64,000 bases of DNA from an uncultured Lachnospiraceae bacterium (GTDB taxonomy: Bacteria > Bacillota > Clostridia > Lachnospirales > Lachnospiraceae): contig CAZJEN010000019.1 in assembly GCA_964545045.1 (NCBI GenBank), positions 743 through 64,742 of the forward strand. The letters run 5' to 3'. The notes under the pieces were generated by a model. It had not been told where the DNA came from. It did no database searches and saw only the letters and a program-made list of their open reading frames with translations. A program made the position numbers and the translations under genes. Positions 40,693-61,852 of the stretch are shown piece by piece; the stretch's first letter is position 1; each line of letters opens with the position of its first letter.

Positions 40693-40788
40693 TTACTTAC
40701 AAAACGTAAAAACGAATGTAAGCAAAGCTATAAGAAAGAGTCCGAAGGACAACAAATCTCGAAAATCAAATTTGTTCTGATTCTTCAT
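40693..40788 (-). CDS. 31-aa hydrophobic peptide, holin-like/type I toxin-like (absent from the ORF track)
   Basis: MKNQNKFDFRDLLSFGLFLIALLTFVFTFCK. GGAGGTGGAG RBS, its own strong promoter, an SD-sequestering hairpin CCUUCAUUC/GAAUGGAGG, and a terminator directly after the stop. Confidence 0.55.
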   Translation of the reverse strand: MKNQNKFDFRDLLSFGLFLIALLTFVFTFCK

Positions 40789-40855
40789 AAGCTCCACCTC
40801 CATTCTTTAGGAATGAAGGTCACCCCACCCTGTAACACGATTGTTCCATGAGTCT

Positions 40856-40884: not shown

Positions 40885-40912
40885 GTAAAAACTCCGAAAT
40901 GAGGGAATTAAA

Positions 40913-42232
40913 ATGAAAAAGAAAGAAATAGCAGAAAAACGTCCTCTGGGACTTTATATCCACATTCCGTTTTGTGTAAAGAAGTGTGCTTATTGTGATT
41001 TTCTGTCCTTCCCGTCGGATGAAGTGGCAAAGGAGCGATATGTAGACGCCCTTTGTGAGGAAATCAGAGCCAACAAAGAGAATGTAGAAGAATATCTGGT
41101 AGAGACTGTATATTTTGGTGGCGGTACACCGAGTGTGCTGTCGGTAGAGCAGATAGAGAAGATATTCGGGACGATTTTGGAAACTTTTTCTGTACGGGGA
41201 TTCGAAGAGGAAAAGCCGGGGAAGCAAGAGAAAAAAGAAAAAAAGAAACTGCGTCTTGGGAAGAAGAATGTCGAAGAACAGGAACAGACAGAGACTCCGG
41301 AAATTCGCCTGCAACGAGTTTTAAGCGGCGAACTGGCGGAGGTTACCATCGAGGTGAATCCGGGAACGGCAGACAGAGAGAAGTTTGCGGCACTTTACGA
41401 GCTAGGGTTCAATCGTCTCAGCATGGGCCTGCAATCTGCTATAACAGAAGAATTGAAATGTCTTGGGCGAATTCACACGAAGGAACAGTTTGCAGATTGC
41501 GTGAAAGCCGCAAGAGAGGCAGGATTTCGTAATATCAGCGGCGATTTGATGTCGGGGCTTCCGGAGCAGACCGAAGAAACTCTGACCGAGAGTATTCGTT
41601 TTCTTTTGGCACAACAGCCGGAACATATTTCGGTGTATAGTTTGCAGGTTGAGGAGGGTACGGAGTTTTATATGCGGTATGGTGAGGATGGACCGGAGAA
41701 GGCAAAGCTTCCGGATGAGGATGAGGATCGGGCGATGTATGAATTGACCGGAAGGCTTTTGTCAGAAGCAGGGTATGAGCGTTACGAGATTTCTAATTAT
41801 GCAAAGCCGGGCTTTGAGAGCCGCCATAACAGTTCTTATTGGACGGGAAGGGAGTATTTGGGCTTAGGTCTTGGTGCGTCGTCTCTTATGTCCAATGCCA
41901 GATTCCACAATACCATGGATATGGAGGAGTATTTGGAAGGAGCGACGGATCCGTTTTCCATTCGAGAGGATATGGAACGTCTGGTGCAGAAGGAACTGAT
42001 GGAAGAGTTTATGTTTCTGGGGCTCCGGATGTGTCGAGGCATTGAAAAAGCGGAGTTTAAGAGGCGTTTTAAATGTGAGATTGAGACGATTTACGGAGAC
42101 GTAATGAAGCGTCTGGTTTCTCAGGGAGTGCTTGCGGAAGCAGAAGGAAGGGTGTTCCTGACGACCAGAGGAATCGATGTCAGCAATGTGGTGCTGGCAG
42201 AGTTTTTGTTGGATGAGTTTGTGCGGAGGTAA
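40913..42232 (+). CDS. hemW: Radical SAM heme chaperone HemW (HemN-like) with a Lys/Glu-rich insertion
   Basis: LYIHIPFCVKKCAYCDF CxxxCxxC motif; position after lepA; low-complexity insert at 41195-41329. Confidence 0.9.
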   Translation: MKKKEIAEKRPLGLYIHIPFCVKKCAYCDFLSFPSDEVAKERYVDALCEEIRANKENVEEYLVETVYFGGGTPSVLSVEQIEKIFGTILETFSVRGFEEEKPGKQEKKEKKKLRLGKKNVEEQEQTETPEIRLQRVLSGELAEVTIEVNPGTADREKFAALYELGFNRLSMGLQSAITEELKCLGRIHTKEQFADCVKAAREAGFRNISGDLMSGLPEQTEETLTESIRFLLAQQPEHISVYSLQVEEGTEFYMRYGEDGPEKAKLPDEDEDRAMYELTGRLLSEAGYERYEISNYAKPGFESRHNSSYWTGREYLGLGLGASSLMSNARFHNTMDMEEYLEGATDPFSIREDMERLVQKELMEEFMFLGLRMCRGIEKAEFKRRFKCEIETIYGDVMKRLVSQGVLAEAEGRVFLTTRGIDVSNVVLAEFLLDEFVRR

Positions 42233-42884
42233 ACGGGAGGTCGTTATAAAAGTAATTGTATTTGACTTGGGCGGTACGTTAATGCAATATGTGGGGATGC
42301 CTCATTCCTGGGTAGAGTTTTATAAACAAGGCTTCGAAGCAATCTGCCGGACCTTTGGGTGTCAGGTGTCGGAAGCGGAGATTGAACGGTCCATACAATG
42401 CTTAACAGAAATGAATCCAAGAGTGAACTACCGGGAGGAGGAATACTTGCCGGAGGAAATGTTCGCGAAGGCGCTGGTTCATTGGCCGGAAGAATTGCCG
42501 ATTGAGGAATGCGTTAAGGTGTTTTTGGACGGTTTAGAATTAAGGGCCGAACTTTATCCGGACGCGATTGTGATACTGCGGGATTTGAAGGAAAAGGGGT
42601 ACAAAATAGCAGCCTTAACGGATTTATCCAGCGGATTTCCGGATGAGCGGTTCCGGCAGGACATCGCAGTACTTATGGGATGTTTTGATTATTATGTATC
42701 CTCTGCAGTTTCCGGTGTCAGAAAACCGAATGACGGCGGACTGCGGATGATTGCCGAAAAGTTTGGAGTGTCTCTTTCGGAGATTGTTTTGGTGGGGGAT
42801 GAGGAGAAAGACGCCCGGACTGCGGAACGGGCCGGATGTAGGTTTGTACGCATGACCGGAGCGGGAAGAGGGAAGGGAGTATAA
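42213..42884 (+). CDS. HAD-superfamily hydrolase
   Basis: VIVFDLGGTLMQ motif I and LVGDEEKD motif IV. Start uncertain; ATG 42213 overlaps the hemW end. Confidence 0.7.
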   Translation: MSLCGGKREVVIKVIVFDLGGTLMQYVGMPHSWVEFYKQGFEAICRTFGCQVSEAEIERSIQCLTEMNPRVNYREEEYLPEEMFAKALVHWPEELPIEECVKVFLDGLELRAELYPDAIVILRDLKEKGYKIAALTDLSSGFPDERFRQDIAVLMGCFDYYVSSAVSGVRKPNDGGLRMIAEKFGVSLSEIVLVGDEEKDARTAERAGCRFVRMTGAGRGKGV

Positions 42885-42936
42885 GCGGTTTGGAGGAACT
42901 GTTGAAAAGATTGGAGTGTATGGGGGGAAGTTGGAG

Positions 42937-42966
42937 TTGACAATTGCTCAAAAGTAATGTTATACT
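42937..42966 (+). promoter_or_regulatory. Promoter of candidate antitoxin sRNA (copy 1)
   Basis: TTGACA (42937-42942), 18-nt spacer, TGtTATACT (42958-42966). Confidence 0.6.
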
Positions 42967-42972
42967 TAGGTC

Positions 42973-43066
42973 AGAAAAGGTGCTACCGATAGAACGGTTG
43001 CCCTGAAATTTTGGGTTACAAAAAAGTAACTGTCAAGTTCTCAGGCTCGGACAGTTACTTTTTTGC
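42973..43066 (+). ncRNA. Candidate ~95-nt sRNA convergent with, and overlapping the 3' end of, the 35-aa peptide gene (copy 1)
   Basis: Strong promoter upstream. Ends in hairpin AAAAAAGTAACTGTC...GACAGTTACTTTTTT, which also contains the peptide stop codon on the other strand. Confidence 0.45.
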
Positions 43067-43280
43067 GTTTTTACCGTTGGAATAGCCTAACTTGTAGGCT
43101 GCACCGCAAGCGATACTTACAATAGCAATCAAATAATACACAGATTCTATAGTCAAATACATAAGCGCAAAAACCTCCCTTTTACATATTCTTGAAGGCA
43201 TGAGCATCCAAGTGAAATCTATGTAAACAGAGCTTGTACTCTCCGGGGGAGGGCAACCGTCCTACCGTACTATGTAGCAC
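42980..43280. repeat. Direct repeat copy 1 (~300 bp) = type I toxin-antitoxin-like module
   Basis: Aligns by eye along its length with 51763-52067. Ends are inverted: GTGCTACCGATAGAACGGTTGCCC ... GGGCAACCGTCCTACCGTACTATGTAGCAC. Confidence 0.85.
43055..43162 (-). CDS. 35-aa hydrophobic peptide, type I toxin-like (copy 1, absent from the ORF track)
   Basis: MYLTIESVYYLIAIVSIACGAAYKLGYSNGKNAKK; GGGAGG RBS 10 nt upstream; the 5' UTR contains the complementary CCCUCCC. Confidence 0.55.
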   Translation of the reverse strand: MYLTIESVYYLIAIVSIACGAAYKLGYSNGKNAKK

Positions 43281-43288
43281 CTAAGAAT

Positions 43289-43317
43289 AGTATAAAACAT
43301 AAATTCGAAAATGTCAA
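43289..43317 (-). promoter_or_regulatory. Promoter of the 35-aa peptide mRNA (copy 1)
   Basis: Minus strand TTGACA, 17-nt spacer, TATACT; predicted start at the repeat boundary. Confidence 0.6.
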
Positions 43318-43401
43318 CGAATAATCGAACATATATTCTTGACAAACGGTGAGAAATGGGCTAATATGAAGATATACAATTGTGTTTGAGGAGGCTATAG
43401 T

Positions 43402-43782
43402 ATGGACGGGATTATCAGAAAGAATTTGGATGATGCATTTGCAAATGAGTGTGCCTATTCGGAAGTGGTGGAGGCCGGTGATTGGGTGTTTCTGAATTTT
43501 TGTGTAGGAAATGTGGGCGGTACAGTGGAAGAACAGGTACATGGCGCTCTTGACCAGATGGAAGCACGTCTTGCGTTGGTGGGACTTACACTGGAGGCTG
43601 TGGTGAAAGTTGATGTTTTAATGAAAGATCCTTGGAATATCCCTGCTATGGAGAAGGTATTTGCTGAGCGTTTTAAAGGAAAGTACCCGGCAAGAAAGAC
43701 GATTGCCACGGAGTTTGCTCACAAGGGCGGCGAGAACGGATTGCAGGTGCAAATCGATGCAATTGCGTATAAAGGTCATTGA
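43402..43782 (+). CDS. RidA/YjgF/L-PSP family protein
   Basis: 126 aa; GAGGAGG RBS; ...YPARKTIA... pattern typical of the family. Confidence 0.75.
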   Translation: MDGIIRKNLDDAFANECAYSEVVEAGDWVFLNFCVGNVGGTVEEQVHGALDQMEARLALVGLTLEAVVKVDVLMKDPWNIPAMEKVFAERFKGKYPARKTIATEFAHKGGENGLQVQIDAIAYKGH

Positions 43783-43820
43783 TGTGGCATAGGGAAGGAA
43801 AGATTTCGATAAAATAAGTC

Positions 43821-43956
43821 TTGCATTTTTTCGTTACATTGTGTATAAAGTAATAGTAGAAAAAGAATACGTTAACTGCCACCGGGTAGTGAATGCGAAG
43901 CATTCGTAGCACATCGTTAGGTCTTAGAAGATGTGTCTGCGGATGCTTTTTGTTTG
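43821..43956 (+). promoter_or_regulatory. Promoter plus leader with an intrinsic terminator upstream of pnuC (candidate riboswitch/attenuator)
   Basis: TTGCAT, 17-nt spacer, TATAAA (43821-43849). Terminator AGCATTCGTAGCACATC ... GATGTGTCTGCGGATGCT followed by TTTTTGTTTG (43899-43956). A competing hairpin GAATGC-GAA-GCATTC (43891-43905) shares the left arm. Confidence 0.5.
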
Positions 43957-44068
43957 AAGGCAAAATCCGAAATGTTATATTACAAAAAGGTAGTTGAAAA
44001 ATGTATAAATCGTAGATAGTTACTTCTGTGGCAGACAAGACTCAGTAGAGAAAAGGAGAACTTTATAT

Positions 44069-44758
44069 ATGAAAAAACGGACTACTTATTTCACCAAAAC
44101 CGAACTTATTCTCTGGTTCGGTTCTATGACCTTAATATTGGCGGCCTTTTGCCTGTTTGACCGGGAAAGTTACTTGACGTTGAGTGCGTCATTGATCGGC
44201 GTGACTTCCCTAATTTTTGCGGCGAAAGGGAATCCGGTGTCTCAGGTGCTGATGATTGCATTTAGCATTTTATATGGGATTATTTCCTATTCTTTTGCCT
44301 ATTACGGGGAGATGCTGACTTATCTAGGAATGACGCTTCCAATGTCGGTGATTGCACTGGTTGCTTGGCTTCGGAATCCGTACGAAGGGAAGAAATCGGA
44401 GGTGAAGGTAAATCATATAGGGAAAAAAGATATTGTATGGATGGTGCTCCTGACGGCAGTGGTAACAGTCGCGTTTTATTTCATATTGGAGGCTTTTGAT
44501 ACCGCCAATATTGTGCCGAGTACGATTTCCGTGACCACCAGCTTTTTGGCGGTGTTTCTGACGTTCCGCCGCAGTCCTTACTATGCGTTGGCTTATGCGG
44601 CCAATGATATTGTGCTCATTGTGCTGTGGGTGTTGGCATCCATAGAGGACATTCATTATGTGTCTGTGGCGGTTTGTTTTGTGGTGTTTTTTGTAAATGA
44701 TATGTACGGATTTGTCAGTTGGCGGAGAATGGCAAAACGCCAGAGGGAGAATGAATGA
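44069..44758 (+). CDS. pnuC: PnuC-family (nicotinamide riboside-type) transporter
   Basis: 229-aa polytopic protein; AAKGNPVSQ...WLRNPY pattern typical of PnuC. Confidence 0.8.
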   Translation: MKKRTTYFTKTELILWFGSMTLILAAFCLFDRESYLTLSASLIGVTSLIFAAKGNPVSQVLMIAFSILYGIISYSFAYYGEMLTYLGMTLPMSVIALVAWLRNPYEGKKSEVKVNHIGKKDIVWMVLLTAVVTVAFYFILEAFDTANIVPSTISVTTSFLAVFLTFRRSPYYALAYAANDIVLIVLWVLASIEDIHYVSVAVCFVVFFVNDMYGFVSWRRMAKRQRENE

Positions 44759-44855
44759 GAAATATTCTGCTAGTTGACTAGAGCGAAAAGCATAGCTTGT
44801 ATTTCGTATGAACAAGCGGTATAATTTTTTTAGGAAAGATTTTTGGGAGGAGACT

Positions 44856-45332
44856 ATGTACAAGCATTATGACAAGGACGGCGCGGCAATCAGTCTGCAT
44901 GACAGCAGAGCCGAAAAGGCAACTTATGAAAACGGTATATTAACCTTTTATTTTCCAGAGGACGGATTCTGGATACTTTCGGAACATGAGGAAAATTCTG
45001 CGGTCGAAGCGGTACGGACGGATGCCTCCGAGGTGCGGTTTCATTTATTATATGAAACCGAAGATGAGTCTCAGTGTTATGTGTTCGATAAGAAATCGGA
45101 ACGAAAGGCAGTGCGGAAGCAGTGGACGCTTTCAGAACTGGTTTCTGCAATAAACAACGGGAAGTATCAACTGGAGTTTTTGTATCGGTACGCAGGCGGA
45201 TATAAGGAACTGGTATTTTACTGCGAGATATGTCAGGATAAGAAACCGTATCGTAGGGAATGCCAGTTGTGGCTGAGTGTGCAGGATGTGACCTATTGTT
45301 GGAATGATTTTGCGAAATGTTACAGAGAATAG
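44856..45332 (+). CDS. Hypothetical protein
   Basis: ATG 44856 after GGGAGGAG; 158 aa; no recognised motif. Confidence 0.55.
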   Translation: MYKHYDKDGAAISLHDSRAEKATYENGILTFYFPEDGFWILSEHEENSAVEAVRTDASEVRFHLLYETEDESQCYVFDKKSERKAVRKQWTLSELVSAINNGKYQLEFLYRYAGGYKELVFYCEICQDKKPYRRECQLWLSVQDVTYCWNDFAKCYRE

Positions 45333-45365
45333 TAGAAAGATTATTCTATAAGGAGATTATGTTAA

Positions 45366-45701
45366 ATGGAGCAATCCACATTTGAACTTATATACAATGT
45401 CGTCAAACAGATTCCAAAAGGTTCCGTCGCAACTTATGGCCAGGTTGCTGCCCTTGCCGGAAATAAACGTTGGGCACGTGTCGTAGGCTACGCCCTTCAT
45501 GCCAATCCGGATCCGGAACATATTCCATGCCATAGAGTGGTGAATCGGGAAGGTGCGGTATCGGAAGCCTTTGCCTTCGGTGGCGAAAACCGGCAGGTGG
45601 AGCTTCTGCGTGAGGAAGGAGTGGAAGTTACCGGTAAGAAGGTGGACCTCACGAAGTACCGCTGGAACCGGATGACGATGGAGATGTTGGGGAAGGAATA
45701 G
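45366..45701 (+). CDS. MGMT-family DNA-binding domain protein (single-domain alkyltransferase-like, Cys retained)
   Basis: 111 aa; IPCHRVVN active-site-type motif; no N-terminal domain. Confidence 0.8.
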   Translation: MEQSTFELIYNVVKQIPKGSVATYGQVAALAGNKRWARVVGYALHANPDPEHIPCHRVVNREGAVSEAFAFGGENRQVELLREEGVEVTGKKVDLTKYRWNRMTMEMLGKE

Positions 45702-45741
45702 GGTAATGTAAAGATTATAGTTGGTTATATTGTTAAAAGAG

Positions 45742-45785
45742 AAAAGTAACGGCCAGTTGTCAAACGTTGACCGTTACTTTTTTAT
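45742..45785. terminator. Bidirectional terminator sharing its stem sequence with the terminators of the two repeat modules
   Basis: AAAAGTAACGG ... CCGTTACTTTTTT; compare AAAAAAGTAACGGTC...GACCGTTACTTTTTT at 51805-51849. Confidence 0.65.
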
Positions 45786-46210
45786 TGTCTTTTTACTTTG
45801 ATTTTCGTAAATTCTATAATTTCTTTTTTATCCGTTTCGGATAGTTTTTCAAAATAATACAAAAGTTCTTTTTCTAAAACAGTATGGAACTGGTACTTTT
45901 TCTTATTGGTTTCGTTGCTGAAGTGACTGAGGTACTCGCCGAAATCTTCTGCGGTATGATCAGGTGTGGAGGTATTAAAAAAATAAATAGAAGGATCAAG
46001 CTCGACGGTATTTGCCATAAGATCATCGACGGTAATGCCATAAAACTTGGCAAGCTTGTAGAGTATATCATTGCTTGGAGTTCTTTTGCCGGTTTCGTAA
46101 TGGGAATAGGTTTGTCTGACAACACCAAGCGCGGCAGCTACATCGGCTTGATTATAGTTGTGAAGTTTTCGAAGTTCTTTTATCTTGCACGCAAGAGTCT
46201 TGTTTGTCAT
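45782..46210 (-). CDS. XRE-family HTH regulator (candidate controller of the adjacent operon)
   Basis: ATG 46210 after GAGGTG; HTH NQADVAAALGVVRQTYSHYETGKRTP; divergent from the methyltransferase operon. Confidence 0.8.
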   Translation of the reverse strand: MTNKTLACKIKELRKLHNYNQADVAAALGVVRQTYSHYETGKRTPSNDILYKLAKFYGITVDDLMANTVELDPSIYFFNTSTPDHTAEDFGEYLSHFSNETNKKKYQFHTVLEKELLYYFEKLSETDKKEIIEFTKIKVKRQ

Positions 46211-46285
46211 GGAAGTCACCTCGTATCGTTTAACTGTCAGAATGAAAAATCATAAGTAAAGTATAGTCGGTTTGTAATACAAAGA

Positions 46286-46363
46286 TGCTACGCGATGTAG
46301 CAAATATTTGACAAAAATGTAAAATAGGTGTAGCATTATGTTAAAATGCTACAAAGTGTAGCG
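46286..46363. promoter_or_regulatory. Divergent promoter region with repeated TGCTAC/GTAGCA operator-like boxes
   Basis: TGCTAC-GCGAT-GTAGCA (46286-46302) and TGCTAC-AAAGT-GTAGCG (46347-46363), plus GTAGCA at 46330-46335. TTGACA at 46308-46313; TGtTAAAAT at 46339-46347. Confidence 0.6.
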
Positions 46364-46443
46364 TTTTGCCGTTGCATAGAACTGCGGGAAGTCGGTTTGG
46401 ATTGAAACGGTGGTCAAAATCCGAGGGAGGAGACGTTGCACTT

Positions 46444-47205
46444 ATGGAAAAACAGGTGAAATCTAAGCAGCGCGTGGCTGATCACGGAGAGGTTTTTACC
46501 GCTGAACGTGAAGTGCAGGCAATGTGCGATTTGGTGAAGCAAGAGACGGAACGAATCGATAGTCGTTTTTTGGAGCCAGCTTGCGGTGACGGAAATTTTC
46601 TTTCTGCGATTTTGGAACGAAAATTAACGGTTGTTACAAAAAAGTACAGACGTAGCGCCTATGACTGGGAGCGTAACGCATTATTGGCGTTGGGAAGCAT
46701 TTATGGGGTAGATATTATGCCGGATAATGTTCTTGCCTGTCAGGAGCGTCTGTTTGAAATTTGGAATAAAGAATACAAGAAGGTTTGCAAAAAAGAATGC
46801 AATGATGCAACGAGAGAAGCGGCGAGGTTTATCCTTTATTTGAACATTGTCTGTGGAAATGCACTGACATTGCTGTGCTGTGATGATGAGGGGAAGGAAC
46901 TGGAAACCCCGATTGTCTTCTCGGAATGGACCTTCCCTTTTAATGACGCACGTATGCAACGTAAGGATTATACGTTCGCTGAACTTTTGGCGGCGGAAGA
47001 TTCAAACGTTAAGAAGAAAAAGCAGGAGGGTGAGTCCTTCGTTCAAGGAACGCTCTTCGATATGGAGTCGGAGAAGGTGGGTGATGAAGGCCGATTCTTG
47101 CAGCAATATATTGCACATTATCGGTGCATTCAAGAGGATGATACCCGTCGAAAGGGAGCAAATCCCTACTTATATCTGACAAAGGAGGAAACGGACAATG
47201 GCTAA
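46444..47205 (+). CDS. DNA-methyltransferase-like protein with a degenerate catalytic motif and no target-recognition domain
   Basis: HGEVFT, motif I LEPACGDGNFL, IYGVDIMPDNV and NIVCGNALT are present. TFPF occupies the position where (D/N)PP(Y/F) is expected. 253 aa. Confidence 0.7.
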   Translation: MEKQVKSKQRVADHGEVFTAEREVQAMCDLVKQETERIDSRFLEPACGDGNFLSAILERKLTVVTKKYRRSAYDWERNALLALGSIYGVDIMPDNVLACQERLFEIWNKEYKKVCKKECNDATREAARFILYLNIVCGNALTLLCCDDEGKELETPIVFSEWTFPFNDARMQRKDYTFAELLAAEDSNVKKKKQEGESFVQGTLFDMESEKVGDEGRFLQQYIAHYRCIQEDDTRRKGANPYLYLTKEETDNG

Positions 47206-48763
47206 CGGTCTTTTTGATAATGTGTATAATCCTGATGTGTTATCTTGTTTGGCAAACCTCTCTAACGATGAGGTATTTACACCGCCTGAAATGGTAAATC
47301 AGATGTTGGATATGCTTCCACAGGAATTGTTTCGCAATCCTGATACCACCTTTTTGGACCCGGCTTGTAAAACAGGAGTTTTCCTGCGAGAGATTGCAAA
47401 GAGACTGATTGTCGGTCTGGAACCTCAGTTCCCGGATTTGCAGGAACGACTGGACCATATTTTTCATAAGCAGTTGTATGGAATTGCGATTACGGAGTTA
47501 ACAAGTCTTCTTTCGAGAAGAGGGTTGTATTGTTCGAAGTATCCGAATAGTGAGTTTTCGGTGTCTTATTTTGATGAGAAACACCAAGACGGAAATATTC
47601 GTTTTAAGAAAATACGACACACATGGGAACCGGAAAAACTCATGAGAGACCTAAACGGGCGAAAAATTGGAAAGTGCATCTGGTGTGGAGCTTCGAGAGA
47701 TGAGTATGACCGGTCGAAAGAGTTGGAGACGCATGCTTATGAATGGATTCATGCAAATCAGCCAGAGGAGATATTTGGTATGAAATTCGATGTAATAATT
47801 GGTAATCCGCCTTATCAGTTAAGTGATGGCGGTAATGGTGCAAGTGCAAAACCGATATATAATCTATTTGTGGAACAGGCTAAGAAATTAAATCCGCGCT
47901 TCTTGATTATGATTATTCCATCTCGTTGGTTCGCCGGAGGAAAAGGTTTGGACGATTTTCGTGAAGCTATGTTAACAGATAGAAGGGTAGTTAGGATAGT
48001 TGACTATGTAAATGCAAAGGATTGTTTCGCTGGGATTAGCCTCGGTGGAGGTGTGTGTTATTTTTTATGGGATAGAGACAATCCGCGGAAATGTGAGTTT
48101 ACAAATATTCATGATGGAAAAGAATCGACAGATTTACGAGATCTTTCTGAGTTTCCTGTATTTGTTCGATACAATGAAGCGATATCTGTTATTCGGAAAG
48201 TATTAGATAAAAATGAACAAAAGGTTTCGGAAGTTGTTGGGTCAAGAAATCCATTTGGTCTTTCATCCGCTGTTCGTGGTGATAAAGACAAGACGGGAAT
48301 TACTGTATATTCCAGTGGCGGGATCGGAAATATAGCAGAAAAAGAGGTAACACAAGGAAAACATTTAATAAATCAATATAAGGTTATGATTAGTAAGGTA
48401 ACAAGTGAGCATGCTGGTGAGCCTGATAAGAGTGGAATGTTTTCTGTACTGTCAACAGTACGTGTTTTGAAACCACAAGAAGTGTGTACGGATTCCTATT
48501 TGATTGCGTATGAATCTAACAATGCCGTATTTGCAGAAAATTTTGCCCAATATATGTGTACAAAATTTTTTAGATTTCTTTTGCTTCAGGCTGTTTCATC
48601 GATTAATCTTTCAAAGGATAAGTTTCAATTTGTTCCTATGCAAGATTTCACGAAAACATGGACTGATGAAATGTTGTATGAAAAATATGAACTTACGCAG
48701 GATGAAGTTGAGTTTATTGAGTCTATGATGAAAGAAAAGGAATTGGAGGGAGGAATTAGGTAA
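47198..48763 (+). CDS. N6-adenine DNA methyltransferase (gamma-class, Eco57I-like methylase domain)
   Basis: AGGAGG RBS; 8-nt overlap with the upstream gene; DEVFTPPEMV, LDPACKTGVFL, FDVIIGNPPYQLSDGG; ~250-aa C-terminal region (putative TRD). Confidence 0.85.
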   Translation: MANGLFDNVYNPDVLSCLANLSNDEVFTPPEMVNQMLDMLPQELFRNPDTTFLDPACKTGVFLREIAKRLIVGLEPQFPDLQERLDHIFHKQLYGIAITELTSLLSRRGLYCSKYPNSEFSVSYFDEKHQDGNIRFKKIRHTWEPEKLMRDLNGRKIGKCIWCGASRDEYDRSKELETHAYEWIHANQPEEIFGMKFDVIIGNPPYQLSDGGNGASAKPIYNLFVEQAKKLNPRFLIMIIPSRWFAGGKGLDDFREAMLTDRRVVRIVDYVNAKDCFAGISLGGGVCYFLWDRDNPRKCEFTNIHDGKESTDLRDLSEFPVFVRYNEAISVIRKVLDKNEQKVSEVVGSRNPFGLSSAVRGDKDKTGITVYSSGGIGNIAEKEVTQGKHLINQYKVMISKVTSEHAGEPDKSGMFSVLSTVRVLKPQEVCTDSYLIAYESNNAVFAENFAQYMCTKFFRFLLLQAVSSINLSKDKFQFVPMQDFTKTWTDEMLYEKYELTQDEVEFIESMMKEKELEGGIR

Positions 48764-51699
48764 TGGCCCAGGAGTTTTTCTTACAACGCCCATCAGTAAC
48801 CCCAACAATCTATGTTTATAACCTCCCGCAAGTAACTACCCACAAAGGCTATGTAAAGGTTGGCTATACTGACCGTGACGCAGAAACACGTATCAATGAG
48901 CAGATGCATACCAGTGGCCTAAAAGCCAACATTCTTTATACGGAATCTGCAATGTGTTCCGACGGTTCCGTTTTTACTGACAAAGAGGTACATCGTGTTT
49001 TGCGTCGTAAAGGCTTCCGTCAGATGAATGAGGGCAATGACCGGAATGAATGGTTTAAGTGTACAGTGGCAGATGTCAAGGCGGCGATTGTGGAGTTAAA
49101 GGAAGGTATTATTACGGAAGCCAGTCGTACCGCTACATTTAAAATGCGTCCGGAGCAACATCATGCTGTAAATCGTACAATGGAGTATTATGCATATGCA
49201 GCGAAGGAAGAACCGGGCAGGCCGCCGAAGTTCCTTTGGAACGCAAAGATGCGTTTTGGTAAGACCTTCGCAGCGTATCAGCTTGCAAAGAAGATGGACT
49301 TTAAGCGTATCCTTGTTTTGACTTTTAAACCTGCGGTGGAATCTGCATGGCGCGAGGATTTGATGACCCATGTAGACTTTGATGGCTGGCAGTTTATTTC
49401 CAATAAGGATGCTGCCGGAAATCATGTGAACATTGATCGTGAGTATATTTATGCGGATAAAAAGAGACCGATTGTGGTGTTCGGTTCTTTTCAGGATTTG
49501 TTAGGAACAAATGAAGCAGGAGGCATCAAAGCCAAGAATGAGTTCATTCATTCGGATAATTGGGATCTCGTGATTTTTGATGAATATCATTTCGGTGCCT
49601 GGCGTGAAAATGCAAGAAAGTTGTTCGAAAATCCGGATGAAGAAGAAACGGCAGATTTTGATGTTGAGAAGTACGGTTTGGAAGAAGCAGGAAACGCTTA
49701 CAATGAGACGTTTTTGCCAATCACAACCGGTCACTATTTGTTCCTGTCGGGCACACCGTTCCGCGCGATCAACAGTGGCGAGTTTATTGAGGACCAGATT
49801 TATAACTGGACGTATTCCGATGAACAGCGTGCAAAAGAAACCTGGGTGGGTTCTAACAATCCATACGCCGCATTACCTCGTATGGTGATGCTTACCTATC
49901 GTATTCCGGACAGCATTCGTCAGATTGCTATGCAGGGGGAATTTAACGAATTTGACCTTAATGTATTCTTTTCGGCAAAAGGCAAGGGTGACGAGGCGAA
50001 GTTTGTATATGAAAATGAAGTACAGAAGTGGCTTGATCTTATCCGCGGTTCTTATCTGCCGTCTAATATCGACGATATGAAGCTGGGACAGGATAAACGT
50101 CCTCCGATGCCGTATTCCGATACTCGTTTACTGAATGTGCTGTCACATACACTTTGGTTTTTGCCGAATGTTGCATCTTGTCAGGCAATGTACAATTTGA
50201 TGATGCAGAAGCAGAATGCATGGTTCAATCAGCGTTATACGATTAACGTTTGCGCCGGGACCAGAGCCGGTATCGGTTTGGATGCGCTTGTTCCTGTGCA
50301 GCGTTCTATGGGAGACCCGCTTGTAACGCAGACCATTACCTTGTCTTGCGGTAAGTTGACAACCGGTGTTACCGTTAGGCCTTGGACCGGAGTTTTTATG
50401 CTGCGTAATCTGAAAAGTCCCGAAACCTATTTCCAGACTGCATTCCGTGTACAGTCTCCGTGGGAAATTACGGATGAGTCCGGGAATCGTCAGATTATGA
50501 AGCAGGAGTGTTATGTGTTTGATTTTGCGTTGGACCGTGCGCTTCGCCAAATTTCCGATTATAGTTGCCGCTTGGATGTAAGGGAATCCAATCCGGAAAA
50601 GAAGGTTGCAGAATTTATCAGCTTCCTTCCGGTACTTGCTTATGACGGAAGCAGTATGCACCAAATCAGTGCGCAGGATATTTTGGATATTGCTATGGCA
50701 GGTACGTCTGCAACACTTCTTGCAAAGCGTTGGGAGTCTGCGTTGCTGGTTAATGTAGATAATGATACGCTTACCCGTCTGATGGCTAGTAAGGAGGCAA
50801 TGAATGCGCTTATGAATATTGAGGGCTTCCGTTCTCTGAACCAGGATATTCAGACCATTATTAATAAGTCCGAAGCAGTTAAGAAAGCCAAAAAGGACGG
50901 CGGAGAAAAGACACAGAAAGAAAAGAAGGAACTTACCGAGCAGGAAAAAGAATATAAGTCCATGCGTAAGAAGATTCAGGAAAAGCTGATTAAATTTGCT
51001 ACCCGTGTTCCGATATTTATGTATCTTACGGATTATCGTGAACGTTCCTTAAGGGATGTGATTACACAACTTGAACCGGGGCTCTTTAAAAAGGTTACCG
51101 GTTTGGATGTGAAGGATTTTGAATTGTTGTGCTCTCTCGGGGTGTTCAATGCAAACCTGATGAACGATGCTATTTTTAAATTTAAGCGTTATGAAGACTC
51201 CAGTCTTTCTTATACCGGTATCGATAAACACAAGGATAAGGATGTCGGCGGTTGGGATACCGTAATTAAACGAGAGGAGTATGACAGGCTTTTTTATAAC
51301 CAGCAGGCGACAATGGAACAGCCGGCGATTTTTGAAGTACCGGTTGCGGCAGAAGACGTCCCGGTTTCGGAAAGAAAACCGGCGGGAAGTCAGAGAAGCG
51401 TTTCGGTAAGTTCCGAACCACAGGCAAAGTCCGGAGAACTGCGATTGATTACCGCGCAGTATGGAGTGAAGTCGCCTGTATATGCAATGAAGGTGGCGGA
51501 TGAACCGTCGGAGTACGGAGTATCCGAGGTGCCGAAGATTAAGAGAGGGGACCAGGTAATACATAAGACCTTCGGAGAAGGTACCATTACCGGAATCGAC
51601 AAGGCACAGACGCATATTCGTGTTACATTTGCCGTGGGGGAAAAGATGTTTATCTATCCGGAAGCATTTGAAAAAGGATTTCTTGTTTTAAAGGAGTAA
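48763..51699 (+). CDS. GIY-YIG/T5orf172-like nuclease domain + SF2 (ResIII-like) helicase + PcrA/UvrD-Tudor-like C-terminal domain
   Basis: TAATG overlap with the methylase. N-terminus TIYVY...VKVGYT...NEWF. Helicase motifs RFGKTF, VIFDEYH, LSGTP, QTAFRVQSP. C-terminus GDQVIHKTFGEGTITGIDKAQTHIRVTF. Confidence 0.8.
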   Translation: MAQEFFLQRPSVTPTIYVYNLPQVTTHKGYVKVGYTDRDAETRINEQMHTSGLKANILYTESAMCSDGSVFTDKEVHRVLRRKGFRQMNEGNDRNEWFKCTVADVKAAIVELKEGIITEASRTATFKMRPEQHHAVNRTMEYYAYAAKEEPGRPPKFLWNAKMRFGKTFAAYQLAKKMDFKRILVLTFKPAVESAWREDLMTHVDFDGWQFISNKDAAGNHVNIDREYIYADKKRPIVVFGSFQDLLGTNEAGGIKAKNEFIHSDNWDLVIFDEYHFGAWRENARKLFENPDEEETADFDVEKYGLEEAGNAYNETFLPITTGHYLFLSGTPFRAINSGEFIEDQIYNWTYSDEQRAKETWVGSNNPYAALPRMVMLTYRIPDSIRQIAMQGEFNEFDLNVFFSAKGKGDEAKFVYENEVQKWLDLIRGSYLPSNIDDMKLGQDKRPPMPYSDTRLLNVLSHTLWFLPNVASCQAMYNLMMQKQNAWFNQRYTINVCAGTRAGIGLDALVPVQRSMGDPLVTQTITLSCGKLTTGVTVRPWTGVFMLRNLKSPETYFQTAFRVQSPWEITDESGNRQIMKQECYVFDFALDRALRQISDYSCRLDVRESNPEKKVAEFISFLPVLAYDGSSMHQISAQDILDIAMAGTSATLLAKRWESALLVNVDNDTLTRLMASKEAMNALMNIEGFRSLNQDIQTIINKSEAVKKAKKDGGEKTQKEKKELTEQEKEYKSMRKKIQEKLIKFATRVPIFMYLTDYRERSLRDVITQLEPGLFKKVTGLDVKDFELLCSLGVFNANLMNDAIFKFKRYEDSSLSYTGIDKHKDKDVGGWDTVIKREEYDRLFYNQQATMEQPAIFEVPVAAEDVPVSERKPAGSQRSVSVSSEPQAKSGELRLITAQYGVKSPVYAMKVADEPSEYGVSEVPKIKRGDQVIHKTFGEGTITGIDKAQTHIRVTFAVGEKMFIYPEAFEKGFLVLKE

Positions 51700-51721
51700 T
51701 CTATACAAGATAAAGTTTCGG

Positions 51722-51750
51722 TTGCTTTTTATTAGAAAGCATGCTATAAT
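51722..51750 (+). promoter_or_regulatory. Promoter of candidate antitoxin sRNA (copy 2)
   Basis: TTGCTT, 17-nt spacer, TGcTATAAT. Confidence 0.6.
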
Positions 51751-51756
51751 AAAACA

Positions 51757-51851
51757 AAGAAAGTGCTACCGATAGAACGGTTGCCCTGAAATTTGACGAA
51801 TTACAAAAAAGTAACGGTCAGCTTACCAGGCGAGGACCGTTACTTTTTTGC
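51757..51851 (+). ncRNA. Candidate ~95-nt convergent sRNA (copy 2)
   Basis: Promoter upstream; terminator AAAAAAGTAACGGTC...GACCGTTACTTTTTT with a compensatory T>G / A>C change relative to copy 1. Confidence 0.45.
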
Positions 51852-52067
51852 GTTTTTACCATTGGCATAACCTAACTTGTAGGCTGCACCGCAGGCGATA
51901 CTTACAATAGCAATCAAATAGTACACAGATTCTATAGTTAAATACATAAGCGCAAAAACCTCCCTTTTACATGTTTCCAAAGGTGAGTACCTATGGATGA
52001 AGCATCTATGTAAACAGAGCTTGTACTCTCTGGGGGAGGGCAACCGTCCTACCGTACTTAGTAGCAC
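51763..52067. repeat. Direct repeat copy 2 (~300 bp) = type I toxin-antitoxin-like module
   Basis: Same organisation as 42980-43280; most divergent in the middle of the 5' UTR and in the terminator loop. Confidence 0.85.
51840..51947 (-). CDS. 35-aa hydrophobic peptide, type I toxin-like (copy 2)
   Basis: MYLTIESVYYLIAIVSIACGAAYKLGYANGKNAKK (one substitution vs copy 1); GGGAGG RBS. The 75-aa track ORF is an upstream extension. Confidence 0.55.
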   Translation of the reverse strand: MYLTIESVYYLIAIVSIACGAAYKLGYANGKNAKK

Positions 52068-52075
52068 TTTAGTAC

Positions 52076-52104
52076 ATTATAGGTCGTAGGATAATAGATG
52101 TCAA
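52076..52104 (-). promoter_or_regulatory. Promoter of the 35-aa peptide mRNA (copy 2)
   Basis: Minus strand TTGACA, 17-nt spacer, TATAAT. Confidence 0.65.
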
Positions 52105-52139
52105 TCGAACAAATTATTAAAATTATTTCACCTTACCAC

Positions 52140-52209
52140 TTGACAAATGTTTCTTGTGGTGTTATTTTATAGACACAAGGTATTAGCACTCCATCGAGTT
52201 GAGTGCTAA
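52140..52209 (+). promoter_or_regulatory. hrcA-dnaK operon promoter with CIRCE operator
   Basis: TTGACA at 52140-52145; perfect CIRCE TTAGCACTC-N9-GAGTGCTAA at 52183-52209. Confidence 0.9.
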
Positions 52210-52234
52210 CAAAGTAAAAAGGACACCGCGTAGC

Positions 52235-53296
52235 ATGGAAACCAAGGAGAAGGGGAACAGGAGGGAACCGGTGGAATTAGACGAGAGAAAACTTAAGATT
52301 TTACAAGCGATTATCAAGAACTACCTTGAAACCGGTGAGCCGGTAGGCTCCCGTACCATTTCGAAGTTTACGGATTTGAATTTAAGCTCCGCTACCATTC
52401 GAAATGAAATGTCCGATTTGGAAGAGTTAGGCTACATCGTACAGCCTCATACTTCCGCAGGCCGCATTCCTTCCGATAAGGGCTATCGTCTTTATGTGGA
52501 CACCATGATGCAGAGCCGCATGCAGGAAGTGGAGCAGATGTGGGACGCTCTGAACGACAAGGCGGATAAGATGGAGACCCTGCTTCAGCAGGTGGCAAAG
52601 CTGTTGGCGGTAAATACCAACTATGCGACACTGGTGACCGGACCGCAGTACCGCAGCCGGAAAGTGAAGTTTATCCAGCTGACGGATGTGGATGAGACCC
52701 AGCTTCTGGCGGTCATCGTTCTGGAAGGCAACATCGTAAAGAACAAGATGCTTCCTCTGGCAGCAGGCCTTGGTAAAGAAGATATCTTAAAGTTGAATAT
52801 AGTATTGAACACCTACCTGACGGGCTTGGATATGTCCGAGATTAACCTTTCGGTGATCGCAAAGCTGAAGGAGCAGGCAGGGGGGCTCGGAAATGTGATT
52901 TCTGAGTTGTTGGATGCCATCGCGCAGGCCATCAGCGAAGAAGAGGACATCCCGGTTTACACCAGCGGAGCAACGAATATTTTAAAGTATCCGGAGCTTT
53001 CCGACAATCACGTTGCCAGCGATTTGCTTTATGAGCTGGAGGAAAAGAAGTACTTGACGGAGCTTTTAAACGAGAACAGCGAAGAGCACGGCATTCAGGT
53101 GTATATCGGTCAGGAGACCTCGGTGGAGTCCATGAAGGATTGTTCCGTGGTGACCGCCACCTATGAGATAGAGGACGGTATTTACGGCCGTATCGGTATT
53201 GTAGGTCCGAAGCGTATGGATTACGAAAAGGTGGTAGGTACGCTGCAAACCTTAAAGAGTCAGTTAGATGATATTTTTAAGAAGAATAAAGAGTAA
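52235..53296 (+). CDS. hrcA: Heat-inducible transcription repressor HrcA
   Basis: ERKLKILQAIIKNYLETGEPVGSRTISK N-terminus. Start uncertain (ATG 52235 or the GTG a few codons downstream); the track start lies inside CIRCE. Confidence 0.9.
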   Translation: METKEKGNRREPVELDERKLKILQAIIKNYLETGEPVGSRTISKFTDLNLSSATIRNEMSDLEELGYIVQPHTSAGRIPSDKGYRLYVDTMMQSRMQEVEQMWDALNDKADKMETLLQQVAKLLAVNTNYATLVTGPQYRSRKVKFIQLTDVDETQLLAVIVLEGNIVKNKMLPLAAGLGKEDILKLNIVLNTYLTGLDMSEINLSVIAKLKEQAGGLGNVISELLDAIAQAISEEEDIPVYTSGATNILKYPELSDNHVASDLLYELEEKKYLTELLNENSEEHGIQVYIGQETSVESMKDCSVVTATYEIEDGIYGRIGIVGPKRMDYEKVVGTLQTLKSQLDDIFKKNKE

Positions 53297-53314
53297 CGAA
53301 GAAAGGTGAAGAAA

Positions 53315-53935
53315 ATGGCAGAGCAGGAAGTGAAAAATCCGGACGAGACCATGGAAGAGGCAGTAGAAGAAACCATGGAAACTCAGGCGGAAGAAACGGT
53401 TGCCGAAGAGACGGAAGAGACCGTAGAGACTGCGGAAGCAGAGGCTACCGAGGGAGCCAAAGAGGGCAAGGGCCTTTTTAAGAAGAAGGAAAAGAAAGAT
53501 AAGAGAGACGAGCAGATTGCGGAGTTAAACGATAAGGTGCTTCGTCAGATGGCAGAGTTTGAGAATTTCAGAAAGCGTACCGAGAAGGAAAAGGCGGCAA
53601 TGTTTGAAATCGGTGCAAAGAGCATCGTAGAAAAGCTTCTTCCGGTCATCGATAACTTTGAACGCGGACTGGCTGCACTTTCCGAAGAGGAGAGAAACGG
53701 GGCATTCGCACAGGGCATCGAAAAGATTTACAAGCAGCTTCTGACGGAGCTTGCGGAAGCAGGTGTTACGCCGATTGAGGCGGTAGGCAAAGAGTTCAAT
53801 CCGGATTTTCATAATGCGGTTATGCACATAGAAGATGAAAATCTTGGTGAGAATATAGTGGCAGAGGAGTTCCAGAAGGGTTACATGTATAAGGATTCCG
53901 TGGTACGTCACAGTATGGTAAAGGTAGCCAACTAA
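53315..53935 (+). CDS. grpE: Nucleotide exchange factor GrpE
   Basis: RQMAEFENFRKR motif; acidic N-terminus; operon position. Confidence 0.92.
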   Translation: MAEQEVKNPDETMEEAVEETMETQAEETVAEETEETVETAEAEATEGAKEGKGLFKKKEKKDKRDEQIAELNDKVLRQMAEFENFRKRTEKEKAAMFEIGAKSIVEKLLPVIDNFERGLAALSEEERNGAFAQGIEKIYKQLLTELAEAGVTPIEAVGKEFNPDFHNAVMHIEDENLGENIVAEEFQKGYMYKDSVVRHSMVKVAN

Positions 53936-61587: not shown

Positions 61588-61852
61588 AAAATTGATTTTG
61601 TAATAAGAAGGTATGTGTGTATAGTATATTTTTGAATTTGTGTAGGATGTTAGACTTTCTTATTGCTTCGATGGCTGTCAACAATTTCCGGACACGGATG
61701 TCCGGAAAAGACGTGCACGCGGCACGGATGGCGCGTAAGCGTCGGTTGTAGGAAATTGAGGAAAGTTTTGACCGAAGCAATTAGAAAGACTTATATCCGG
61801 AACCCATGAACAAAATATATTATACACACATACCTTCGAATAAATCAATTTT
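61588..61852. repeat. 265-bp near-continuous palindrome D between convergent genes (MITE-like or large hairpin RNA)
   Basis: ~83-bp arms share AAAATTGATTT, GAAGGTATGTGTGTATA, TATATTTT, CTTTCT and ATTGCTTCG in inverted orientation. The ~100-bp GC-rich centre contains CCGGACACGGATGTCCGG. Confidence 0.7.

Follow-up and report, generated by a model that had tools for sequence, protein, structure and literature searches.

Probable stepwise assembly of the hemW-hrcA accessory region, with two toxin-antitoxin-like modules and a restriction-modification-like cassette, in an uncultured Lachnospiraceae bacterium

Two direct repeats of a toxin-like module flank about 8.5 kb of DNA between hemW and hrcA in an uncultured Lachnospiraceae bacterium, and the question raised by this locus is whether such repeats mark the ends of a single island or whether the DNA between the two conserved genes has another history. 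The locus lies in a stretch of 64,000 nucleotides (nt) of contig CAZJEN010000019.1 (GenBank assembly GCA_964545045.1), the whole of which is referred to below as the window. A preliminary description of the window had taken the segment for a single island with the repeats as its ends, and considered its gain or loss through their recombination plausible. The comparisons reported here lead us to conclude that the DNA is probably an accessory region assembled stepwise, with two resident type I toxin-antitoxin (TA)-like modules and a 6-kb restriction-modification (R-M)-like cassette putatively controlled by an XRE-type repressor, the cassette occupying a slot with conserved arms in which homologous recombination would replace or remove the cargo.

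The source genome (G000) belongs to an uncultured Lachnospiraceae genus and is a metagenome-assembled genome (MAG) of 3.06 Mb in 56 contigs, 92.6% complete. The region upstream of hrcA was compared in 18 of the 19 other genomes of the genus and at 74 loci of other genera, and 8 metagenome runs were searched as assembled contigs.

Contents of the hemW-hrcA gap across the genus

The gap in the window and its two anchors comprise the following features.

40913-42232, plus strand: hemW (radical SAM/HemN_C; Pfam Radical_SAM 5e-25, HemN_C 8e-15), the left conserved anchor, found in all relatives
42177-42884, plus strand: HAD-family hydrolase gene, accessory, outside the left repeat (Pfam Hydrolase 7.6e-20)
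42937-43317, both strands: repeat copy 1, TA-like module
43402-43782, plus strand: ridA, RidA/YjgF-family gene (Pfam Ribonuc_L-PSP 5.8e-12)
44069-44758, plus strand: pnuC, PnuC-family transporter gene, genus backbone (Pfam 3.4e-35, NCBIfam PnuC 2.5e-18)
44808-45332, plus strand: hyp174, gene for a hypothetical protein of 174 amino acids, accessory, no family match
45366-45701, plus strand: gene for an MGMT-family protein of 111 amino acids with PCHR at residue 54, genus backbone (Pfam DNA_binding_1 8.5e-28)
~45702-51711 (6,010 bp): window-specific insertion, XRE unit and three-gene R-M-like cassette
51712-52135, both strands: repeat copy 2, hrcA-proximal TA-like module
52140-53296, plus strand: hrcA promoter, CIRCE operator (52183-52209) and hrcA, the right conserved anchor (Pfam HrcA 4.2e-64)

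Within the genus, the same gap was found in the following states.

hemW adjacent to hrcA, no repeat remnant: G004 (174-bp gap), G014 (130-bp gap)
hemW, one AraC/GyrI gene or ~1.2 kb, hrcA: G007, G003
hemW, pnuC, (ECF sigma/anti-sigma), MGMT, hrcA: G001, G018, G019
Longer versions with Cof-HAD, hyp174, AraC/GyrI and GNAT genes: G002, G005, G006, G008, G010, G012
hemW, HAD, pnuC, further genes, MGMT, module, hrcA: G009
Further genes, MGMT, XRE, R-M, module, hrcA: G000 (window), G013

The preliminary description was right that the DNA between hemW and hrcA is accessory, since hemW lies next to hrcA in two genomes of the same genus, G004 and G014. These empty sites, at which a single copy of the repeat had been expected, hold no repeat. 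The hrcA promoter and CIRCE were kept in every junction state. The MGMT-like gene directly abuts hrcA in 11 genomes of the genus (among them G001, G002, G005, G006, G008, G010, G017, G018 and G019), and in G012 only a toxin-less module remnant separates the two. When the 16 genomes with an occupied gap were counted, the MGMT-like gene was present in 14, pnuC in 13 (the versions in 13 same-genus genomes being 75-89% identical), hyp174 in 5 (G005, G008, G010, G012 and G013) and ridA in 2. Twelve of the 16, with the G012 remnant counted here, had no module at the hrcA junction, and a left module was found only in G005 and G010. These two genomes also carry the ridA orthologues (94-98% identical), and ridA was not found at the hemW-hrcA locus of the other genomes of the genus; it is an accessory gene retained only together with the left module. 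The HAD gene is present in G005, G009 and G012, missing from G002 and from locus L006, and was not detected adjoining hemW in nine further genomes of the genus. As this accessory gene lies outside the left repeat, the repeats do not delimit the accessory DNA.

The pnuC and MGMT-like genes are common to most of the genus and ridA and hyp174 occur in few species; none of them is the cargo of a recent island. What had been described as one island bounded by repeats is reduced by this comparison to a window-specific insert at ~45702-51711, the rest being shared within the genus. Outside the genus, the hemW-hrcA gap measured <=0.7 kb at 15 of 45 loci, 0.7-2 kb at 14 and >2 kb at 16, variation which indicates that the junction is generally permissive.

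Base composition deviates only weakly. The GC content between the repeats is weakly low, at 42.6% compared with 45.9% for the genome (z=-1.44, 7th percentile), while the segment from ridA to the MGMT-like gene falls at the 21st percentile, indistinguishable from the genome, and tetranucleotide usage and distance are unremarkable.

The repeat unit resembles a type I toxin-antitoxin module

That direct repeats of a toxin-like module flank the segment was confirmed, with copies at 42972-43317 and 51755-52104. Pairwise alignment joined them as one continuous homologous unit of ~346 nt, ~87% identical and spaced 8783-8787 bp apart, within which three sub-blocks were distinguished: 42972-43011/51755-51794 (40 nt, 93%), 43016-43190/51801-51975 (175 nt, 91%) and 43217-43317/52004-52104 (101 nt, 81%). 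The longest exact blocks common to both copies are 33, 32, 27, 27 and 26 nt. BLAST found exactly two copies in the 3.06-Mb assembly (copy 2, E=4e-106). Including their promoters, the modules extend over ~42937-43317 and ~51722-52104 and contain the following elements.

Copy 1, plus strand: small-RNA promoter, TTGACA 42937-42942 and TGtTATACT ending at 42966
Copy 1, 42972-43072, plus strand: predicted small RNA of ~95 nt, antitoxin candidate
Copy 1, from 42980: invariant 5' hairpin element
Copy 1, 43022-43066: bidirectional terminator
Copy 1, 43055-43162, minus strand: toxin-candidate open reading frame (ORF), 35-amino-acid hydrophobic peptide MYLTIESVYYLIAIVSIACGAAYKLGYSNGKNAKK
Copy 1, 43312-43317, minus strand: toxin promoter -35
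Copy 2, plus strand: small-RNA promoter, TTGCTT 51722-51727 and TATAAT 51745-51750
Copy 2, from 51763: invariant element
Copy 2, 51947-51840, minus strand: toxin-candidate ORF
Copy 2, 52099-52104, minus strand: toxin promoter -35

The peptide has 35 amino acids in both copies (MYLTIESVYYLIAIVSIACGAAYKLGY(S/A)NGKNAKK), and its ORF is preceded by a GGGAGG Shine-Dalgarno sequence and a TTGACA-17-TATACT promoter. In the predicted toxin mRNA, a CCCUCC anti-Shine-Dalgarno sequence in the 5' untranslated region (UTR) pairs with GGGAGG in both the minimum free energy and the centroid folds. Two alleles of the peptide ORF are conserved over 9 module copies. The predicted ~95-nt RNA, which would be transcribed from the convergent promoter, ends at the bidirectional terminator, which overlaps the peptide stop codon. 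Its fold has an energy of -34.7 kcal/mol (z=-4.4 against shuffled sequences), and the stem of the terminator shows one compensatory pair, U-A to G-C, among 12 copies. The 5' hairpin element of the small RNA, GTGCTACCGATAGAACGGTTGCC, is invariant in 12 full or partial copies of the genus, loop included, implying a sequence-specific partner. Contigs from a gut metatranscriptome cover the module only, with zero depth over the flanking HAD and ridA genes, and are weak evidence that the module is transcribed.

By analogy, this design is that of a type I TA system of the TxpA/RatA or Fst/par kind, in which the peptide would be toxic and under antisense control. The ~95-nt RNA, complementary by construction to the 3' end of the toxin mRNA, would trigger degradation of that mRNA as in TxpA/RatA and BsrG/SR4. 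The derivatives in G012 and G013, in which the toxin is deleted or disrupted and the small RNA kept, provide an indirect hint of a toxic peptide neutralized by RNA.

Both predicted transcripts begin with a near-identical element of ~30 nt, GUGCUAC...ACGGU...GGUUGCCCU, which in the DNA forms an inverted repeat (42980-43010 and 43250-43283 in copy 1; 51763-51793 and 52037-52070 in copy 2). The possibility that the module, ending in such an inverted element, is a mobile element resembling a miniature inverted-repeat transposable element was considered and rejected as unsupported, because both transcripts have this element as their conserved 5' leader, target-site duplications could not be seen and the sites keep their synteny from species to species. 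The first six bases of the leader, TGCTAC, equal the half-site of the XRE operators described below, which may be coincidence.

Each module copy is an old resident of its position

If the repeats had arisen with an island, they might be expected to be each other's closest relatives along their full length. This was not observed. The small-RNA promoter of copy 2 is 97% identical to that of the G009 module and 55% identical to that of copy 1, and the corresponding values for the toxin promoter are 90% and 47%; for the toxin ORF the order is reversed, with 69% identity to the G009 module and 94% to copy 1. The outer segments of copy 1 match the left-position modules of G005 (L004) and G010 (L007). 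For its outer and regulatory segments, each copy thus has orthologues at its own position in other species, and is an old resident there. The copies are also independently present, the left one alone in G005 and G010 and the hrcA-proximal one alone in G009. The ORF alleles are not bound to position, the left module of G005 and the right module of G009 sharing the other allele, which indicates either that recombination or gene conversion was confined to the ORF or that alleles were exchanged through transfer. The likeness of copies 1 and 2 is accounted for by strong constraint on the module core together with a shared toxin-ORF allele, possibly through gene conversion, and is not duplication from an insertion event.

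The module family has at least four or five separate sites on the chromosomes of the genus, including two housekeeping loci in other species, where it is syntenic (PmbA/TldD with an AIR-synthase-like gene; a methyltransferase with an HTH/TPR gene). At the hrcA-proximal position, copy 2 has an intact orthologue in G009, one with a disrupted toxin in G013 and a toxin-deleted remnant in G012, a decay series from intact through toxin-disrupted to toxin-deleted. Toxin-deletion joints (51848->52118 and 51856->52119) were also seen in metagenomes, and remnants comprising only the small-RNA half follow hyp174 and the MGMT-like gene in G012 and G013. The hrcA-proximal module of G013 has an intact small-RNA half; near its 3' end the toxin ORF is broken by ~130 bp of inserted GC-rich DNA that contains palindromes (L117, G013:C38, ~3410-3540).

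A putatively XRE-controlled slot with unrelated predicted restriction systems

The insertion between the MGMT-like gene and the hrcA-proximal module contains the following features.

46219-45782, minus strand: XRE-type helix-turn-helix (HTH) repressor, 145 amino acids, divergent from the cassette operon (HTH_3 8.9e-18)
46286-46363: divergent promoter region, palindromes TGCTAC-N5-GTAGC at 46286-46302 and 46347-46363 bracketing TTGACA at 46308-46313
46366-47205, plus strand: orf279, methylase-like ORF of 279 amino acids, motif I EPACGDGNF, without NPPY (weak matches to methyltransferase N-terminal families)
47198-48763, plus strand: Eco57I-family gamma-type N6-adenine methylase, 521 amino acids (Pfam Eco57I 2e-35)
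48763-51699, plus strand: T5orf172 (GIY-YIG-type) nuclease and superfamily 2 (SF2) helicase (GKT, DEYH), 978 amino acids (Pfam T5orf172 1.5e-10, MUG113 4e-8, ResIII 3.9e-7)

As regards gene content, the ridA, pnuC, hypothetical, MGMT-like, methylase and helicase genes listed in the preliminary description were all found. The XRE gene, which it placed in an operon with the methylase and helicase, is divergent from them; orf279 had been overlooked, and the HAD gene lies outside the repeat.

The methylase carries motif I as LDPACKTGVF and NPPY at residue 203, and among PADLOC models it matched MTase_II (2.3e-51) and REase_MTase_IIG PDLC03626 (1.6e-42). The latter model was also matched by the nuclease-helicase (8.3e-33 over residues 121-770), whose ORF overlaps the methylase stop by 1 nt and which is predicted to be the restriction subunit. 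The most likely start of orf279 is M27 at 46444, and it is 39% identical to the methylase N-terminus over 54 amino acids. With 'MTase_II' and 'REase_MTase_IIG' as its best models, the cassette combines a split architecture with an extra methylase-like ORF; it gave no match to Type I or Type III subunits and no NCBIfam equivalog, and a sequence search of solved structures returned nothing useful for the helicase-nuclease or the methylase. From these domains the cassette would be expected to have restriction activity. Among structures in the PDB, the relatives of the XRE protein are of the Xre, PbsX and C-protein types, and a plus-strand ORF at 45884-46255 had no Pfam or NCBIfam match above noise. 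The TGCTAC-N5-GTAGC pattern occurs 5 times in the window compared with 0.57 expected, and the two palindromes around the promoter are the putative operators through which XRE would repress.

The three-gene R-M unit was also found in two other genera (G022 and G183) with 50-67% identity, the nuclease-helicase homologues being 67% and 59% identical. It adjoins a serine recombinase and an rve-type insertion sequence in G022 and Schlafen, PD-(D/E)XK and SRAP genes in G183, and in both genomes it stands without XRE and without the module, from which it follows that the R-M cargo moves horizontally on its own.

The slot was seen empty as well as occupied. Downstream of the MGMT stop (window 45701), G009 has AAAAGTTCTT and next a sequence that runs collinear with window 51720 onward; there the stop abuts window 51712. 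A cassette-free joint, 45701->51720/51721, which skips 6018-6019 bp, was found in metagenome runs X5, X8 and X10, and the same three runs also hold cassette sequence.

G013 carries an orthologue of XRE at the same place (75% identity), with the divergent promoter and both palindromes kept. Nucleotide homology between the window and G013 ends just past the second palindrome (~46365), beyond which G013 encodes a 229-amino-acid protein unrelated to orf279 and then the Mod (PADLOC 8.8e-214) and Res (5e-289) proteins of a Type III system, followed by the module with the disrupted toxin and by hrcA. In the hrcA/grpE tree, G000 groups with G002, which lacks the slot, and G009, which has the module only; the subclade of G013 is a different one, shared with G005 and G012, both without the slot. 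Slot occupancy is therefore patchy.

The XRE family itself is not specific to defense, because its 56-61% identical homologues, which make up 79 of the 80 kept from metagenomes, mostly adjoin flagellin genes (30 loci with >=5 kb upstream). The module or either R-M cargo accompanied 0 of these 80 homologues. The MGMT-XRE junction recurred in only one metagenome contig, of 1 kb (L125, 81% identical).

Two further observations concern this insertion. At 47572-48822, cassette sequence 90-99% identical to the window occurs in runs X5, X7, X8 and X10, yet the C-terminal half of the methylase, the target-recognition part, is covered at a much lower depth. Contig depth is a poor measure, and the drop is a lead towards possible differences in specificity among strains. 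A terminator hairpin at 45745-45785, after the MGMT-like and XRE genes, has a stem, GTAACGGcC...GACCGTTAC, that resembles the module terminators (76% identity) and could be an old module remnant or a product of convergence. It may mark recombination within a third module copy, although only the stem is similar and no invariant 5' element lies upstream.

Weighing the origins of the region

Taken together, the comparisons favor the hemW-hrcA gap being a permissive site that was filled stepwise, not by one island. In such an account, a first layer would consist of the genus-wide pnuC and MGMT-like genes with HAD, ridA and hyp174 in few genomes, and a second of the type I TA-like module, which is dispersed on the chromosome and present here in two old copies, each specific to its position. 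The third layer would be the 6.0-kb insertion between the MGMT-like gene and the hrcA-proximal module, in which the divergent promoter, with the XRE repressor and two operators, would drive the three-gene R-M-like operon. The MGMT-like gene, XRE and the operators may serve as the left recombination arm, and the TA module and hrcA promoter as the right. Exchange or loss of cargo by homologous recombination in these arms is the most likely route, because in G013 the XRE/operator unit precedes a Type III pair and in close relatives the slot is empty. No integrase or transposase had been visible in the preliminary description, and profile searches of the ORFs in the interval likewise detected no domain of a recombinase or transposase; ARAGORN found no tRNA, and hence no tRNA-type integration site.

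Several points weigh against this account. All the relative genomes are MAGs, and contigs from the metagenome runs break at repeats and lose rare variants. The XRE-marked slot was found in two genomes only, making the swap a two-point comparison combined with empty-site evidence. The insertion at ~45702-51711 is mildly atypical in composition (42.3% GC compared with 45.9% for the genome, 7th percentile). The 35-amino-acid peptide gave no Pfam or NCBIfam match at E<=1, and the small RNA gave no Rfam match at the gathering threshold, nor at E<=1 on 42900-44100. As to the order of events, the module may have come first and the cassette later, or an XRE-R-M-module block may have arrived and then been partly deleted.

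A bolder extension, put forward tentatively, is that XRE with its operators and promoter on one side and the hrcA-proximal TA module on the other form the fixed arms on either side of a dedicated docking slot. Restriction systems unrelated to each other (Type III in G013, a split GIY-YIG-helicase/N6-adenine methylase system here) would be exchanged in it as promoter-less cargo under one controller, and the toxin module would discourage deletion of the slot. If true, the slot would be a plug-and-play expression platform for restriction systems beside a heat-shock operon.

The main rival holds that XRE, R-M and module copy 2 (45702-52135) move or are exchanged as one unit, which the module would stabilize by addiction, and that G009 and G012 show its decay products. 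It is consistent with the presence of a module on the right in both R-M-occupied genomes, G000 and G013, with the fact that this block is the exact difference from G002 and G005 (window 45703 joins 52119) and with the decay seen in G012 (toxin deleted) and G013 (toxin disrupted). However, the module occurs without R-M at this very site in G009, and elsewhere at the left position and at the two housekeeping loci; the same R-M trio occurs in other genera without module or XRE; and copy 2 matches the G009 module at 90-97% identity in its outer segments, as expected of a site resident. We therefore consider the single unit unlikely.

One island of ~8.5 kb, gained or lost by recombination between module copies that also stabilize it, is a very improbable origin and as such is largely refuted. 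The repeats are direct and ~87% identical, their exact blocks of up to 33 nt could support RecA-type recombination, no integrase is present, the inter-repeat GC content is slightly low (7th percentile) and the 94% identity of the toxin ORFs is compatible with exchange between the copies. Against this, no repeat copy lies at the empty sites of G004 and G014, 14 of the 16 occupied-gap genomes share part of the cargo and most have no full module or only one, the accessory HAD gene lies outside the repeats, and the orthologue of each copy is the one that other species have at that position. The product expected of such recombination, the order HAD-module-hrcA, was absent from the 18 genomes of the genus and from the assembled contigs of the 8 metagenome runs, and no joint skipping ~8.78 kb was found in either. 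Rare recombination between the copies is physically possible; neither the genomes nor the contig sets gave evidence that it has shaped the locus. A joint in run X10 that goes back 8683 bp (51849->43167) was considered as the junction of an excised circle but more probably represents the left module of a relative whose 5' part resembles copy 2, because its shorter side consists of 87 nt that start at the conserved element and the contig runs on into ~88% identical ridA.

Mis-joining of contigs across the repeated module is scarcely credible: the genome is a 56-contig MAG and run contigs break at repeats, but window-identical contigs from runs of three studies span every unique junction (40900-43009, 43158-47434, 50397-51792 and 51943-53400), and the order HAD-module-ridA recurs in G005, module-ridA-pnuC in G010 and module-hrcA in G009 and G013.

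Relation to known systems

In the 'immigration control region' of the Escherichia coli hsd locus, R-M systems replace one another between conserved flanks. Chromosomal hotspots for defense and R-M genes are treated in two reviews (PMC12707154, PMC4176335). The slot described here resembles such hotspots in its fixed site between core genes, which some relatives have empty and others have filled with unrelated R-M systems, and in having no dedicated recombinase, from which exchange by flanking homology is inferred. It differs from them in lying directly upstream of the hrcA-grpE-dnaK heat-shock operon and in having as its left arm a conserved repressor/operator unit that is apparently re-used by both cargos.

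Type I TA systems with convergent antisense RNAs overlapping at their 3' ends include TxpA/RatA and BsrG/SR4 of Bacillus subtilis and Fst/RNA II of the par locus of Enterococcus faecalis. The module shares with them a hydrophobic peptide of ~35 amino acids with a basic tail, a long 5' UTR whose predicted structure occludes the Shine-Dalgarno sequence, a predicted convergent small RNA sharing a bidirectional terminator, and a multicopy presence on the chromosome that includes remnants with the small RNA and no toxin. Unlike par, with its complementary direct repeats, the two transcripts of the module would share a 5' leader present as a DNA inverted repeat.

Parallels to the XRE unit are the controller (C) proteins of Type II R-M systems and RptR, a repressor of a Type I R-M/DarTG island that binds TAGCTA (PMC12255303). 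The resemblance of XRE to them extends to a small HTH regulator beside an R-M operon, to short palindromic sites in the promoter, to a regulator and site that are conserved while the neighboring defense genes vary, and to a TA system in the same island. The XRE described here differs in its length of 145 amino acids and its divergent transcription, its operators are TGCTAC-N5-GTAGC and not C-boxes or TAGCTA, and the genes beside it encode either a Type III system or a split nuclease-helicase/methylase system.

Type ISP enzymes such as LlaGI and LlaBIII are fused nuclease-helicase-methylase restriction enzymes. The cassette likewise combines an SF2 helicase with a gamma-type N6-adenine methylase, and its helicase (121-770) and the C-terminal part of its methylase (195-513) align to different regions of the fused 1359-amino-acid 'Type IIG' model PDLC03626. 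In contrast to the fused Type ISP and IIG enzymes, its functions are split over two proteins, its nuclease is of the T5orf172/GIY-YIG type and not Mrr/PD-(D/E)XK, and it has an extra, catalytically degenerate methylase-like ORF.

R-M and defense hotspots between core genes, multi-copy type I TA families and dedicated R-M repressors are thus of already known kinds. Specific to this locus are its place just ahead of the hrcA operon, a family of unannotated modules in which one 5' leader is common to both predicted transcripts, and one XRE/operator unit ahead of two unrelated restriction systems. The locus provides a worked example of a "conserved" hemW|hrcA junction that has become a layered accessory region in gut Lachnospiraceae, and it corrects the tempting inference that flanking repeats mean an island. 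It represents ordinary genome plasticity with an R-M swap slot and does not overturn current understanding. As a study system, the slot could help to show how a cell safely expresses restriction genes that it has newly acquired, and in metagenomes it could mark strain-level variation in defense.

Neighboring genes and RNA elements

The conserved block around the gap includes the following genes.

38736-40547, plus strand: lepA
From 52199, plus strand: hrcA, grpE, dnaK, dnaJ, prmA and rsmE

The true start of the HAD gene, whose listed ORF begins at 42177, is probably near 42240. At the right anchor, the CIRCE operator (TTAGCACTC-N9-GAGTGCTAA, 52183-52209) overlaps the TTG start (52199) of the listed hrcA ORF, and translation more likely begins at the ATG at ~52235 (METKEKG...), which agrees with the alignment of relatives only from residue 13-18.

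The leader of pnuC (43821-44068) is conserved. Its stretch at 43873-43957 is 96.5% identical in G002, compared with ~81-83% for the flanking genes, and in several metagenome runs its word depth is many-fold over that of its neighbors, which suggests a widely shared regulatory RNA; an Rfam search of the leader gave no match even at E<=1.

Between lepA and hemW, the minus strand at 40693-40803 encodes a second small hydrophobic peptide of 36 amino acids (...FGLFLIALLTFVFTFCK), with a weak match, below the cutoff, to Pfam Hol_Tox (putative holin-like toxin; E=0.0075). The spacing of lepA and hemW is 365 bp in the window compared with ~8 kb in G009 (L116, G009:C42, 8435-16704), and this interval is another variable spot of the same conserved block.

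At the gathering threshold, the only Rfam match in the whole window was a TwoAYGGAY RNA (RF01731; 102 bits, E=4.6e-17) on the plus strand at 61638-61805, downstream of the dnaK-region genes.

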